Below are positions 12,436 to 28,824 of a DNA stretch of 53,260 nucleotides, piece after piece. Source of the stretch: a virus (Duplodnaviria; Caudoviricetes). Position numbers and translations under genes: made by a program. Under the pieces are notes generated by a model. The model did no database searches. It worked only from the letters and a program-made list of their open reading frames with translations, and had not been told where the DNA came from. Every line of letters starts with the position of its first letter. Position 1 is the first letter of the stretch. The stretch covers positions 1 to 53,260 of IMG/VR virus record IMGVR_UViG_3300031983_000023. The stretch is one strand, 5' to 3'.

Positions 12436-13052
12436 AGCAAGTCGTCCCAGTCGTCCCAGCCGGGGGCCCTCCGGGACACCCGGTCTATAAGGTCCTCCCT
12501 CGAGGTGTTGATGTATTTGACGATCGCTCTCTTGACCTCGCTCGCCGACGGCTCCATGTTGCGAATCCACAGCATCATGCTCCTGTACGCGTTGGCGAAG
12601 GCGGCTCTCGGCGGAATCCTGATGAGCTTCCCTCCCCTCATCCGTATCACGGTCCCGTACTCGTGCACGATGAACAGGTGCCGCAGCTGCAGCTCGGATT
12701 CGTGGTGCTTCGCGCGGCTCTGCGCCACCCGGTAGCCTCGGCCCTTGAGCTTGCGGATGCGCATCATGTTGATGTAGGACTTCCGCTCCAGGTCTCCCAG
12801 CGCGAAAAGCGGCGTCGACGGCTTCGGCAGGCCCCTCCTGGACTTCCTCTTCACGGTCGCGGGCTTGAGCCTCCTGAGCCCCAGGGTGTCGCTCCGGATC
12901 CCCTTCCGGAACGTTTCTATCAGGTTCACGGCGGCGTTTTTCGCCTGCGTGTCGGCTATGGGGATGATCATTTTGGGGAGCCTCCTGATCCTGGAGCGCT
13001 TCGCTTCGTAGTGGTCTGAGAACTCGAACCTGAAAAGCGGCTTAGCCATCAC
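12432..13052 (-). CDS. Neck / virion morphogenesis protein
   Basis: Basic protein with LKPATVKRK, HEYGT and IPPRAAF motifs typical of gpS/HK97-gp10-like proteins. Confidence 0.7.
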   Translation of the reverse strand: MMAKPLFRFEFSDHYEAKRSRIRRLPKMIIPIADTQAKNAAVNLIETFRKGIRSDTLGLRRLKPATVKRKSRRGLPKPSTPLFALGDLERKSYINMMRIRKLKGRGYRVAQSRAKHHESELQLRHLFIVHEYGTVIRMRGGKLIRIPPRAAFANAYRSMMLWIRNMEPSASEVKRAIVKYINTSREDLIDRVSRRAPGWDDWDDLL

Positions 13053-13474
13053 TTCCTCACCAGGCCGAACGTCCAGTACAGGTGCGTGTCGGCGAACTGC
13101 GAGGCCCGGGACTTCTGGCCTATGCTGTACACGTGCCCGTCGACCTCGGCCGTGGCCCTCCGCAGGTCTATGTCCTCGAAGGCTATCCCCCCCTGCGTCC
13201 AGGAGAGCGCCGGGGTCCAGACGGCCACGTCGGCCTCCTCGAACAGGCCGGCCTTTTGCAGGCGGTACATGTCCGGGGCGTACTCTACGGGGAAGGCCTT
13301 TATCGTCTTGTCGGTCGACCCGGACTCCCCCTTGATGGAGCCCAGCCTGCCCCTGGACACCTGGGCCTCCTCCCGGAGGTGGAACAGCACGTCGTCGCCG
13401 TACTCGTCGCAGTGCGCCTTGGCGTCTATCAGCGCGCAGTCCCTCTCGAACTTCACCCCCGTGCTCGGCGCCAT
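13049..13474 (-). CDS. Head closure (stopper) protein
   Basis: Start MAPSTGVKFE at 13474; beta-rich 141 aa after the adaptor. Confidence 0.55.
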   Translation of the reverse strand: MAPSTGVKFERDCALIDAKAHCDEYGDDVLFHLREEAQVSRGRLGSIKGESGSTDKTIKAFPVEYAPDMYRLQKAGLFEEADVAVWTPALSWTQGGIAFEDIDLRRATAEVDGHVYSIGQKSRASQFADTHLYWTFGLVRK

Positions 13475-14403
13475 CAGTCGGTCCCCCCGCTGGTCATGTG
13501 CGTCTTGAGGAGGCTCAGGGCGGAGCGGGCCAGCTCGTTCCGGATGTGCGTGAACTTTCCCCGCTTGCCGTACTGCCTGCCGAAGCTCGCCACGCTCAGC
13601 GCGCCGCCCCCGGTCCTGTTGGCCACGATGCCCAGCGCGGACTCCGCGACGAGCATCTTTATCGCCTCGTGTACGCCCTCCGGGATTGCCGTATTCTCGT
13701 ATCCGGCGGTATAGGTCACCTTTATGTTGCGGGAGCCCCTGGGGAACATGGGCGCCGTGAAGTTCTGGTTGACGTTGATCTTGGCCTTGAGCATCCCCTC
13801 CTCGGCCAGCACCTCGATGGACTGGAGGCTCGGCATGTACTCGCCGCCGCCCATCACGTACTCGACGGAGGTCAGCGCCAGGATGGGCCTGCGGTTCAGG
13901 ATCAGCAGCTCCTTGCCGGTGCCGCTCTTGTACTCGGCGTAGGTTTTCACGCCCCGGAAACTCAGGCGGCACTTTTGCTCGACCCATGGCACCACGAAGC
14001 GGTCCCTCCGGTTGATCAGCCACTTGTCGCTCAGCACCGCGGGCGTTATGCCGTACTCCTCGAGCAGCTCCCGGACGTCCTGCGCCGAGGGCATGGAGGC
14101 GGCCTCCTCCTCCCACTCCGGGACCACCTCGAGGTAGTACGTCCTTCCCGGCGTCTCCTGGGTCACGAGATAGGCCTTGATCCGCCAGGTCCCGATCGGG
14201 TCCAGCGCGCCGGCGGCGAACGTGTACTTCACCTTCTTGAGGGTTGGGGGGCTGACTATCGTCGGGGTCACGACGGTTTCCGCCCCCGCCGGATCCTTGA
14301 CGTGCAGCTTCACGTTGCCCGCTTCCCCGGCGAGGTCGATTCCCGTGTCCAGGGTGAGCTCGTACTCCTGGCCCTTCGCAACCACGCCGTCGGTGTCAGC
14401 CAT
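13474..14403 (-). CDS. Head-tail adaptor with N-terminal Ig-like domain
   Basis: C-terminal FPRGSRNIKVTYTAGY..IPEGVHEAIKML adaptor motif. Confidence 0.75.
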   Translation of the reverse strand: MADTDGVVAKGQEYELTLDTGIDLAGEAGNVKLHVKDPAGAETVVTPTIVSPPTLKKVKYTFAAGALDPIGTWRIKAYLVTQETPGRTYYLEVVPEWEEEAASMPSAQDVRELLEEYGITPAVLSDKWLINRRDRFVVPWVEQKCRLSFRGVKTYAEYKSGTGKELLILNRRPILALTSVEYVMGGGEYMPSLQSIEVLAEEGMLKAKINVNQNFTAPMFPRGSRNIKVTYTAGYENTAIPEGVHEAIKMLVAESALGIVANRTGGGALSVASFGRQYGKRGKFTHIRNELARSALSLLKTHMTSGGTD

Positions 14404-24134: not shown

Positions 24135-24566
24135 TTACGTCGGCTCCCCTCCCCTCTCGTAGTAAGGCTTTGGCCGGCCCTCGTTTCTCGCCACGCCGGC
24201 GTCGGCCCAGAACAGCGCCTCCTCCAGCTTCCGCAGGGCCACGGATTTCTCCCGGCCGGGCGGCACCTCGTCGTCTATCACCCCCGCCATCTGCCTGACC
24301 GACATCCGCAGCCTCGCTATGCTTATGCCCTGGCTCTCGCCGATGGCATGCGTGTCGAACCTCTTGAGAATCTCCTCCCTGCGATCCCGCGGATCGAGTG
24401 TGCTCCCCTTGCCAACCCGCAGTGGATCCATCGCCTCCGCGCTCGGCGGCCCCGGCCTCGGCCTCGCCGTCTCCGGTTTCGACAAGTTCTCCGACTCCAC
24501 GTTGTCACCGCCTTTCTGCATCCGGCTCTTTCCGAACCGTAGTCCTGCTTCTCTGTCTTTGTCCAT
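24135..24566 (-). CDS. Acb2/Tad1-like hairpin protein (putative anti-defence nucleotide sponge)
   Basis: GAGGAGGAAGGA RBS. C-terminal RFDTH...PPGREKSVALRKLEEALFWADAGVARN. Confidence 0.65.
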   Translation of the reverse strand: MDKDREAGLRFGKSRMQKGGDNVESENLSKPETARPRPGPPSAEAMDPLRVGKGSTLDPRDRREEILKRFDTHAIGESQGISIARLRMSVRQMAGVIDDEVPPGREKSVALRKLEEALFWADAGVARNEGRPKPYYERGGEPT

Positions 24567-24580
24567 TCCTTCCTCCTCAC

Positions 24581-25177
24581 CTATTCGTTCTGAATGTCCC
24601 GCATGTTCGCCAGGCTTATTTCCGTCGCTCCGCGCGCCCGGCGCAGCCGCCCCAGTCCCTTTGATTCCAGCTGCCTGATTCTGTTGCCGGTTACGTTGTA
24701 TATCTGCCCTATCTCGTCCAGCGTCTTTTGCTCCCCCTCCAGGCCGAACCGCAGCTTGATTATTTCCGCCTCTCGCGGAGGAAGCGTGTCGAGCACGGCC
24801 ATCAACTCCTCGCCGACCTGTCCCCGGCTCGCGGCGATTTCCGTCCCCCACAGCCGCAGCCTTTCCCTGGGAGCTTCTATCTGCGAAAAAGGGATTTCCA
24901 GCACGGCCCTCGTTTCCTTGAACCCGTACAACTCATCGGGAAAAAGGTCCTCCTTGAGCATCTTGAAATGGTCGCCCAGTCTGACCGCCTGCAGGCAGTA
25001 TGCCTCGTCCTTTTTCCTGGCCTTCCGTTTCAGGTTCAGCAGCTTTCCTATGGCAACCTGATTCCCCACCCCCGGGTTGGCCTCCACGAATTGGCTGACC
25101 GAACTGTAGCGGTCGAAAATGCAGTGCCACAAAACGTTGTTCCTTAGCCTCGCCTCCAGCCTGATCGGCTTAATCAT
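24581..25177 (-). CDS. Sigma-70 region 4 domain protein with N-terminal HTH (putative late regulator)
   Basis: LDTLPPREAEIIKLRFGL...TLDEIGQIYNVTGNRIRQLESKGLGRLR. Confidence 0.85.
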   Translation of the reverse strand: MIKPIRLEARLRNNVLWHCIFDRYSSVSQFVEANPGVGNQVAIGKLLNLKRKARKKDEAYCLQAVRLGDHFKMLKEDLFPDELYGFKETRAVLEIPFSQIEAPRERLRLWGTEIAASRGQVGEELMAVLDTLPPREAEIIKLRFGLEGEQKTLDEIGQIYNVTGNRIRQLESKGLGRLRRARGATEISLANMRDIQNE

Positions 25178-27194: not shown

Positions 27195-27276
27195 TTTTCC
27201 CCTCTTGCTATTCTCCCGCTGTTTTACAACGGCGGTTTAAACGGTGACGGTTTTCGCTTTCGCAGGTTCGCCGCCA

Positions 27277-28007
27277 ACCTCCGCTCCCACCGGCTGGGCT
27301 TCTCTCCGGCCGTGGCCCGCTCCCGTGGTCTGGGCTTCTCACTCGCCGGTGGCCCGCTCACCCACACTGGGTTTCTCCACTACCCTGGCCCGCTCTGCTC
27401 AAGTGGACTTCTCCGTCGCGGTGGCACGCTCTCTCGACCTGGGTTTCTCGGGGAAGATGGCCCGCTCCGGTGGTGTGGGTTTCTCCCAGGACATGGCCCG
27501 CTCGGTCCGGGTGGATTTCTCTGGAGAGGTGGCCCGCTCCATCCGCATGGGCTTCTCGCCTACAGTGGCCCGCTTCCCGTCCGTGGGTTTCTCGCTCTTT
27601 TTGGCTCGCTCTATCACAATGGATTTCTCATGGTGCCTGGCCCGCTCATCGAGCCTGGATTTCTCCCGGGCGATGGCCCGCTCTTGCAAGCTGGGTTTCT
27701 CCTCTGCCTTGGCCCGCTCTCCAGCCGTGGGCTTCTTGGACTTCCTGGCCCGCTCGCTCCTGGTGGGCTTCTCCCTGTTCTTGGCCCGCTCTGAGCATTT
27801 GGGTTTCTCGTTGGTCATGGCCCGCTCGACCGGCCTGGGTTTCTCGCGGTTCGTGGCTCGCTCCCCCCGTTTGGGTTTCTTAAGTTCGATGGCCCGCTCC
27901 AGTCGTCTGGGTTTCTCCACGATCGTGGCCCGCTCCCCCTCAATGATTTTCTCTTGGAAAGTGGCTCGCTCCCCGCCTGTGGGTTTCTTGCCGGAGGTGG
28001 CTCTTCC
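27277..28007 (-). ncRNA. TIGR-type dual-repeat guide-RNA array (20 units of 36 nt)
   Basis: Minus-strand units GAGCGGGCCA-N8-GAGAAACCCA-N8 with a strict 36-nt period (one 37-nt unit) and 40 different spacers, directly downstream of a Nop-domain gene. Confidence 0.9.
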
Positions 28008-28824
28008 TCCACTCGCTATGTTTGTGCCCCAGATACTCCTCGTCGTAGAGGGGCCGTATGGGCAAGCCCTCCAGTGCCCGCCATATGACGTACAGGTCCT
28101 TGATGAACATTTTCACCATGTAGCGCCTGGCCGCGTTGTGCTGGTGTCCCGCCTTTGGCCGCTTCGGATCAGTCGGGTTCTTGCTCTCCTCGCCCCAATC
28201 CTCCGACTCAAGACGGTGCTTCACGTTGTCATAGTAAACTCTATACGGGCTGCCATGCACGAGAAACTGCTTGCCGAGCACGCCCAGCAGCTTGGATTTC
28301 AGGAAGGCGTTGTATGGGCGCACAAAGCCCTTCGTTTTTTTGTCGCCGCGGATCAGGGTATCGGTCGCGACCAGTACCCTTTTCCCCTTTATCTTTTTCC
28401 AGACCTTCCCGCGCACAAGGCCTGGATTCATACCGGCGAACTGCCAGCCTTTGGAGACGTTCTCGAACTTGTGTATGTCGAACTCTGTAACGATCACGGC
28501 AGCCAGCATCTCGCCGACTCCCTTCACGTCCCTAAGATAGCTAATCCAGAGCGGGTGCTTGTGGATTAGAGGGACGATCGCCTTTATCATGGCGAGCTCA
28601 AATTTCAGTTTATCGTCCCTCCGCTCCATGAGTACCATGAGCAAAGCGGCGTCGCGGTCCGGCCTCCCCTTTTTGGCCTCTCCATTTTTCGTCAAGCCAA
28701 GTCGGCCGTCCAAGGCTATACGCTCGTCTTGAGCGTCATAATAAGCCCGCGTGAAGATGCGGATCGACTCCATCATCTCCGGGGTAAACCTTTCATCCGG
28801 GTCCGGACAACATACCGTTTTCAT
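27940..28824 (-). CDS. tasA: Nop-domain / IS110-C-terminal-like protein (TasA-type, no nuclease domain)
   Basis: Coiled coil, then HPLWISYLRDVKGVGEMLAAVIVTEFDIHKFENVSKGWQFAGM, YNAFLKSKL, PYRVYYD, HQHNAARRYMVKMF..DLY. No RuvC (DEDD) or HNH N-terminus. Confidence 0.85.
   Translation of the reverse strand: MKTVCCPDPDERFTPEMMESIRIFTRAYYDAQDERIALDGRLGLTKNGEAKKGRPDRDAALLMVLMERRDDKLKFELAMIKAIVPLIHKHPLWISYLRDVKGVGEMLAAVIVTEFDIHKFENVSKGWQFAGMNPGLVRGKVWKKIKGKRVLVATDTLIRGDKKTKGFVRPYNAFLKSKLLGVLGKQFLVHGSPYRVYYDNVKHRLESEDWGEESKNPTDPKRPKAGHQHNAARRYMVKMFIKDLYVIWRALEGLPIRPLYDEEYLGHKHSEWRKSHLRQETHRRGASHFPRENH

Follow-up and report, generated by a model that had tools for sequence, protein, structure and literature searches.

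The window, by which we mean the whole 53,260-nucleotide stretch of DNA analysed here (IMG/VR virus record IMGVR_UViG_3300031983_000023, assigned to the Caudoviricetes), carries a dual-repeat TIGR array on its minus strand, at about positions 27277 to 28003, with a tasA-like gene (27940–28824, minus strand) lying upstream of the array on the same strand. A preliminary description of this DNA had identified a TIGR array, an identity which we uphold on the strength of the dual repeats, the 36-nt units and the adjoining Tas gene. It was also right in taking the end at 27997 as the one proximal to Tas; its coordinates for the array (27287–27997) give the correct place, although they draw the extent slightly too narrowly.

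The array and the adjoining tasA-like gene

The array comprises 20 units of 36 nt each and has truncated edge repeats at both ends. Read along the minus strand, each unit runs from an edge repeat (GAGCGGGCCA) through an 8-nt spacer A and a loop repeat (GAGAAACCCA) to an 8-nt spacer B, which makes 40 spacers in all, set off by 10-nt repeats of two kinds in alternation. The sequence GAGCCA precedes spacer 1, while spacer 40 is followed by GAGCGG and then by unrelated sequence. TRF detected a 36/72-nt period at the array, a lag-36 scan revealed one array only in the whole 53-kb window and no Rfam family matched the array.

The variable part of the spacer is 8 nt long in 39 of the 40 cases and 9 nt long in the other (unit 19), with all four bases present in each of the eight spacer columns. 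The base that follows these eight variable nucleotides (hereafter position 9) is G in 36 spacers and A in the remaining four, and is itself followed by AG in all 40. Given that G makes up 0.35 of the bases in the spacers, the binomial tail for at least 36 of 40 is 6.7e-13. At the other end of the repeat, CCA is found in 38 of the 39 complete repeats and TCA in the last. Thus, the spacer layout set out in the preliminary description (eight variable nucleotides, then G or A in these proportions, then AG) is confirmed, save for the single 9-nt spacer; its remarks that box D is AG rather than UG and that the ninth position is constrained are sound; and each of the 20 joins of spacer A to the reverse complement of spacer B that it listed was reproduced exactly by parsing the window.

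In the repeats described by Faure et al., box D is a UG at the start and box C a CCA at the end (PMC12045711, section 8); box D is AG in the repeats of the window, in contrast to UG in TasR. The layout can be illustrated with the edge-repeat variant GAGCGAGCCA (27962–27971, minus strand), in which base 1 is position 9, bases 2–3 are box D (AG), bases 4–7 are the interior (with a C...G pair within it) and bases 8–10 are box C (CCA); this variant differs from the edge repeat of SpTIGR at position 9 alone. The first copy of the loop repeat, AAGAAACCCA (27980–27989, minus strand), is one of the four repeats with A at position 9. The edge interior in the window is CGGG (C...G pair) and the loop interior is AAAC, which is A-rich.

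The tasA-like gene, recognised by homology and fold, encodes a protein of 294 amino acids (P0001). Its AlphaFold model (pLDDT 90.7, built with 26 homologues) consists of two long coiled-coil helices and a Nop/IS110-type RNA-binding domain, the helices (residues 15–42 and 59–88) being the sole elements predicted ahead of the Nop domain. Neither Pfam nor the predicted model revealed an HNH or RuvC domain in P0001, and Transposase_20 was the only Pfam family returned, below threshold. Among PDB sequences searched with phmmer, P0001 matched TasR (9mty, 8.9e-11) and TasH (21kl/9w03, 1.2e-10), with alignments confined to the C-terminal halves of these proteins. The ten best PDB matches found by Foldseek were all chains of TasH or TasR (E 3.3e-10 to 3.8e-8), followed in the list by the IS621 recombinase (8wt9, 6.6e-4). 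As two helices and no nuclease domain stand before the Nop domain, P0001 is, going by sequence and model, a nuclease-less Tas protein of the TasA type.

We found 184 homologues of P0001 at E ≤ 0.001, many of them around 235 amino acids long and ending near a Tyr/His loop. This C-terminal loop (28018–28047, minus strand) contains a candidate tigRNA-processing dyad (Y260; H267, H269), proposed from alignment to SpTasH: in the phmmer alignment, Y260 is matched with Y289 of SpTasH and H267 with H296, residues described as catalytic in the processing of precursor RNA (PMC13421893, section 15). Y260 and H269 are invariant in all 26 aligned members of the family. Tas proteins that lack the Tyr/His loop are described from stem-loop systems (10.64898/2026.09.09.750476, section 10).

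The stop codon of the tasA open reading frame falls inside the second unit of the array. The last 58 nt of the gene (27940–27997) overlap about 1.5 units and the last 19 or so residues of P0001 are encoded by repeat and spacer sequence; pLDDT is 60–70 over the C-terminal 40 residues. Arrays overlapping the 3′ end of tas have already been reported (10.64898/2026.09.09.750476, section 5).

The neighbouring genes are of phage type: the array lies directly upstream of the genes for a DUF5681 protein and the large terminase, which share its strand with those for the portal and an Acb2/Tad1-like protein. Just downstream of the co-directional terminase gene, an overlapping pair of open reading frames (24135–24851 and 24581–25177, both minus strand) encodes an Acb2/Tad1 hairpin domain (E 5.6e-11) and a sigma-70 region 4 (E 1.5e-17), one each. 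The Acb2/Tad1 hairpin domain has the fold of the sponges by which phages soak up nucleotides used in defence signalling. The next gene begins about 80 nt beyond the array. No terminator-like site was found on the minus strand downstream of the array, and the 111 nt past it fold no better than shuffled sequences (z −0.59), so that transcription may read through into the packaging genes. The window array differs here from the typical arrays of Faure et al. in having no terminator-like hairpin, although a rho-independent terminator after the array is described as typical, rather than defining, of TIGR loci (PMC12045711).

Position 9 among related loci

We collected 80 viral, 15 genome and 17 metagenome loci with Tas homologues and parsed their arrays with our own scripts. 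Dozens of unrelated contigs, of viral, genomic or metagenomic origin, have similar arrays with different spacers beside a Tas homologue, and no spacer was common to the window and any related locus. The homologues on genome contigs came from metagenome-assembled genomes of many phyla and gave no pointer to a host.

Base 2 of box D is able to pair with base 1 of box C in 1,115 of 1,170 repeat copies from 65 loci. The same holds for all 89 repeat types, counting only those with at least four occurrences within a locus (G-C 75, A-T 7, G-T 5, T-A 2), and this covariation fixes the register of the repeat. In one related locus (L032, 2357–2989), the loop repeat GAT.AACACA has T in box D and A in box C, a double change that preserves the pair. 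Edge interiors likewise retain a terminal pair, which is C...G in CGAG, CGGG, CGTG and CGCG as against T...A in TGTA and TGAA. Position 9, on the other hand, is G, A, T or C among the relatives while the sequence that follows it (AGCGAGCCA) stays constant, and hence has no partner inside the repeat. T is fixed at position 9 in both repeats of another relative (L034, 3735–4133; TAG...CCA, 11/11 and 9/11).

We placed these states on a Tas tree of 76 rows (quick IQ-TREE run, supported by SH-aLRT only), leaving eight duplicate loci out of the counts. In a clade of 34 rows (support 100), position 9 is free in 12 and partly A in 10, while 12 have no parsed array. In a second clade, which has 38 rows (support 86), position 9 is fixed, as G in 18, A in 5 and T in 1. 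The window falls within a starred 14-row clade, with G in nine rows, partly G in two and no array parsed in three. The G label requires 12 changes on the tree, a count as low as which was reached in none of 500 shuffles (mean 17.3). SpTasH forms a long branch, the placement of which is unsure. In the clade with a free position 9, Transposase_20 was the only Pfam family matched (10 ORFs).

At 27 loci, both repeats are fixed at position 9, with 28 further loci not qualifying for this comparison; the fixed base is identical in edge and loop repeats at 26 of them (G 19, A 6, T 1). Across 31 loci of the G type, position 9 is G in 664 of 725 cases, A in 43, T in 12 and C in 6, so that even the rule of a purine at this position is not strict. 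The minor bases look like ordinary transition-biased drift and by themselves provide no evidence of selection. Guide length is probably a clade trait in this Tas family, either 9+9 or, where G, A or T is fixed, 8+8, and this clade pattern may already be visible in Faure et al. (fig. S4/S5A) or in TIGRSafari.

Three further observations were made on the relatives. Three loci (L067, L068 and L072) have Tas proteins nearly identical to that of a fourth (L069; branches of about 0.005), yet share with it only four of 31–36 spacers, which points to fast spacer turnover. Several relatives (L023, L016, L041 and L001) include two or three arrays, both upstream and downstream of tas; in the window, the array is downstream only. 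The tblastn matches to Tas cross one to five stop codons in L045, L047, L006, L011 and others, in part because the match extends into the arrays.

Searches for targets

From the constrained ninth position, the preliminary description had derived, as one of two options, a GC core in targets, on the assumption that a target is spelled by spacer A and the reverse complement of spacer B. In pairing A with B across the loop repeat, which is A-rich, it was in line with the published edge/loop rule; the core itself gained no support from our searches.

After masking the array, we searched the window with the 20 cognate A/B pairs and, for comparison, with the 380 non-cognate ones. Allowing gaps of 0–2 and up to two mismatches, the enrichment of cognate over shuffled pairs that had been suggested as a sign of targets was absent inside the phage (8 matches against 8.58 expected), and with up to one mismatch there was 1 match against 0.37 expected. 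The best self match, for unit 4 at 13446–13463, agrees in 15 of 16 letters, with its mismatch at position 1 of spacer B; it has a 2-bp gap of CA, where AC would be predicted, and lies inside an open reading frame at 13049–14116 (minus strand). This match is within chance.

For four of the 20 guides, a viral collection was scanned, collapsing matches with like flanks and taking gaps of 3–4 as an internal control. Among the matches listed for these guides, the independent ones numbered at least 80, 51, 15, 79 and 57 at gaps of 0, 1, 2, 3 and 4, respectively. There was thus no excess at functional spacing, gap 0 being level with gap 3 among the matches listed, and GC was the centre of none of the 15 independent gap-2 matches listed. 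Among the matches listed, how often two joined 8-mers match by chance varies strongly with the gap modulo 3, and so with codon phase, an effect for which any target search with split guides must allow.

About 31 of the gap-0 matches of unit 11 fall within one conserved gene of AT-rich viral contigs (L102, L103, L105 and about 28 more), where their flanks are almost the same. Considering that the window has a GC content of 62% and these contigs are AT-rich, we have taken these contiguous 16-mer matches as one family by descent and as a chance match. No natural target of the array guides was found in the window or, for the four guides searched, in the viral collection. Xu et al. note in their discussion that short spacers lead to many false target matches (10.64898/2026.09.09.750476), and the outcome of the search for a GC core is of the same kind, leaving the core unsupported.

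Codon-phase coherence between spacer A and the reverse complement of spacer B gave z values of +1.0, +1.8 and −2.0 at gaps of 0, 1 and 2 in the window, and of +0.7, +1.5 and −1.4 in the group with a fixed position 9 (27 loci, 247 units); the positive control, in which position 9 is free, gave no signal at its expected gap (−0.17) and so failed. No shift stood out for overlap or palindromy between spacers A and B in 26 tests (largest |z| 2.5), and this absence of overlap agrees with Faure et al. (PMC12045711, section 7).

Interpretation and comparison with known systems

The locus is a phage-borne dual-repeat TIGR array with its tasA-like gene, in which, most probably, position 9 belongs to the repeat, the guides are 8+8 and no GC core is demanded of the target. 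Going by its relatives, the array would be transcribed together with the tasA-like gene directly upstream of it on the minus strand. A TasA dimer would bind the loop repeat and two edge halves at their C and D boxes; the G of box D (AG) would pair with the leading C of box C (CCA), the motifs being carried on the two protomers. By homology with SpTasH, the precursor would be processed in a register set by cuts inside each edge repeat, made by TasA through its C-terminal Tyr/His loop. In the resulting 36-nt tigRNA, the two 8-nt spacers would pair with opposite strands of a single DNA site of about 16 bp, a step proposed by analogy, as no natural target was found. Since TasA has no nuclease domain, the expected outcome is DNA binding and blocking of transcription instead of cutting. 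The G at position 9 would serve as a third nucleotide of box D, contacted by the protein and kept alike in both repeats to suit a symmetric dimer.

Such a role for position 9 has a precedent in the behaviour of the box motifs, which, according to Faure et al. (PMC12045711, section 8), diverge between loci yet are alike in edge and loop repeats, a symmetric dimer binding both; the sharing of one position-9 base by edge and loop repeats is this same behaviour. However, a concerted position 9 fits a palindromic target core (GC, AT or TA) equally well. For target prediction and tool design with these effectors, it matters whether the guide is read over 16 or 18 letters and whether the centre is constrained.

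One alternative, which we think rather unlikely, is that position 9 is a guide base, that the guides are 9+9 and that a palindromic GC (in the clades of the A and T types, AT or TA) is needed at the centre of each target. The 36-nt unit and the spacing of box C and box D are as in arrays with 9-nt spacers (PMC12045711, section 8), position 9 sits at the place of a guide base in TasR and is free in the sister clade, and agreement of edge and loop repeats at 26 of 27 loci is what a palindromic core would need. Set against this, the closest characterised system is described with spacers of 8 nt and had 16 positions tested (10.64898/2026.08.11.744272, sections 7–8), while TasR is least sensitive at the spacer edges, where it tolerates mismatches, and accepts gaps of 1–2 bp between sites (PMC12045711, section 7). 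Among the viral matches listed for four guides, gap 2 was the rarest gap and never had a GC centre; the near-perfect self match of unit 4 has CA where AC is predicted; and a fixed core would make the usable target space 16-fold smaller for no evident gain. Each of these counterarguments is weak or indirect. Were this reading true, a hidden internal motif would exist in a system described as motif-free.

It is unlikely, too, that the ninth base is read on the DNA in such a way that the palindromic centre is specific to each clade: GC here, AT in the type of CGphi29, TA in one relative and none where position 9 is free. This would amount to a motif inside the target that switches between clades, in a family reported to need none beside it, and would echo the core dinucleotide of IS110.

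A neutral account, on which position 9 has no function, being a once-free base made uniform by duplication of units and read neither by protein nor by target, seems to us quite improbable. It would explain why the fixed base differs by clade (G, A or T) while the rest of the repeat is unchanged, and it accords with the transition-biased drift in arrays of the G type (A 43 versus T+C 18 of 725) and with a minor-allele share at position 9 in the window (10%) similar to that of the interior columns of the repeat. Yet duplication cannot bring edge and loop repeats into agreement, as they differ in sequence, and they share the same base at 26 of 27 loci in at least three states; furthermore, the clustering of the state on the Tas tree (12 changes against 17.3, 0/500) argues against neutrality. 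That the repeat is a coding tandem repeat with a 12-codon period, or an array of binding sites for the packaging genes, can be dismissed as highly improbable: long open reading frames do cross the region on both strands (e.g. 27244–28569, plus strand; 27399–27920, minus strand) and the DUF5681 and terminase genes lie directly downstream of the array, but ten conserved and eight fully variable positions, with four bases in every variable column, are unlike a protein repeat, arrays of this type accompany Tas homologues in dozens of unrelated contigs with other spacers, and the repeats match an array shown to yield tigRNAs (PMC12045711, section 5).

The analogy with the IS110 core dinucleotide was drawn in the preliminary description. 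The IS110/IS621 bridge-RNA recombinases distantly share the fold of the RNA-binding domain and have a two-part guide, but the window protein has no DEDD RuvC-like catalytic domain and, where they have a single bridge RNA with a donor/target double loop, the window presents a 20-unit array. An IS110-family bridge-RNA element was ruled out on these grounds (no RuvC-like domain, an array of 20 units and only a distant IS621 fold at 6.6e-4). No sign of a mobile-element boundary was seen at the locus, nor anything pointing toward recombination at a core.

TaTIGR-TasR, from a Thermoproteota archaeon (9MTY), has a dual-repeat array, a 36-nt tigRNA, CCA as box C, a pair between the G of box D and the C of box C, an extra pair in the edge repeat and an A-rich loop (PMC12045711, section 8), all features with counterparts in the locus or model described here, and its Nop domain is homologous to that of P0001 (8.9e-11). 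It differs from the window in its UG box D, in having all nine spacer positions variable (an 18-nt guide) and in its active RuvC domain. FpTasA, PlTasA and MbTasA resemble P0001 in being solo coiled-coil and Nop proteins that accompany a guide array, and MbTasA is described as binding DNA and repressing transcription in a guide-dependent manner (10.64898/2026.09.09.750476, section 12). PlTasA works with stem-loop arrays (PMC12045711, section 9), whereas the TasA of the window retains the Tyr/His loop.

The nearest characterised relative is SpTIGR-TasH of Salicola phage CGphi29 (NC_020844), the TasH system studied in most depth, in which 8 variable nt separate the repeats AAGCGAGCCA and AAGACAACCA. 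Like the window locus, it is phage-borne and lies amid structural and packaging genes; its unit is 36 nt long, with an A-rich loop repeat; and its spelling consists of 8 variable nt, a fixed purine and AG, with CCA at the end of the repeat. Its edge repeat differs from GAGCGGGCCA at two places, position 9 and one interior base. The Nop domain of SpTasH is homologous to that of P0001 (1.2e-10), with the Tyr/His loop aligned, and the two proteins are about 27% identical over the part that they share. The two systems differ in that position 9 is A (0.9) in SpTIGR and G (0.9) in the window, and in that SpTasH has an N-terminal HNH nuclease and cuts DNA, while P0001 is predicted to consist of coiled coil and Nop domain only.

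Published work on guide length supports the comparison. The variable part is given as 18 nt in two systems and 16 nt in SpTIGR by Faure et al. (PMC12045711, section 6). Guan et al. describe an ‘8 nt Spacer A’ that base-pairs with DNA and tested mismatches MM1–MM16 (10.64898/2026.08.11.744272, sections 7–8). In the passage on the SpTasH target, the flanking duplex is described from nucleotide 17 onwards (PMC13421893, section 21), and the residue numbers given there suggest a contiguous target of 16 bp. The guides of 8+8 with unread bases that the preliminary description offered as its second option fit SpTIGR and would apply to the window by analogy with it; the spacer layout that it presented as a variant grammar is not new, SpTIGR being spelled alike with A for G. 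Judged by its sequence, the ‘variant’ of the window has the spelling already known from SpTIGR, G replacing A. The locus changes little otherwise; it adds to the known phage-borne TIGR-TasA systems one from a virus of marine sediment, with 20 guides.
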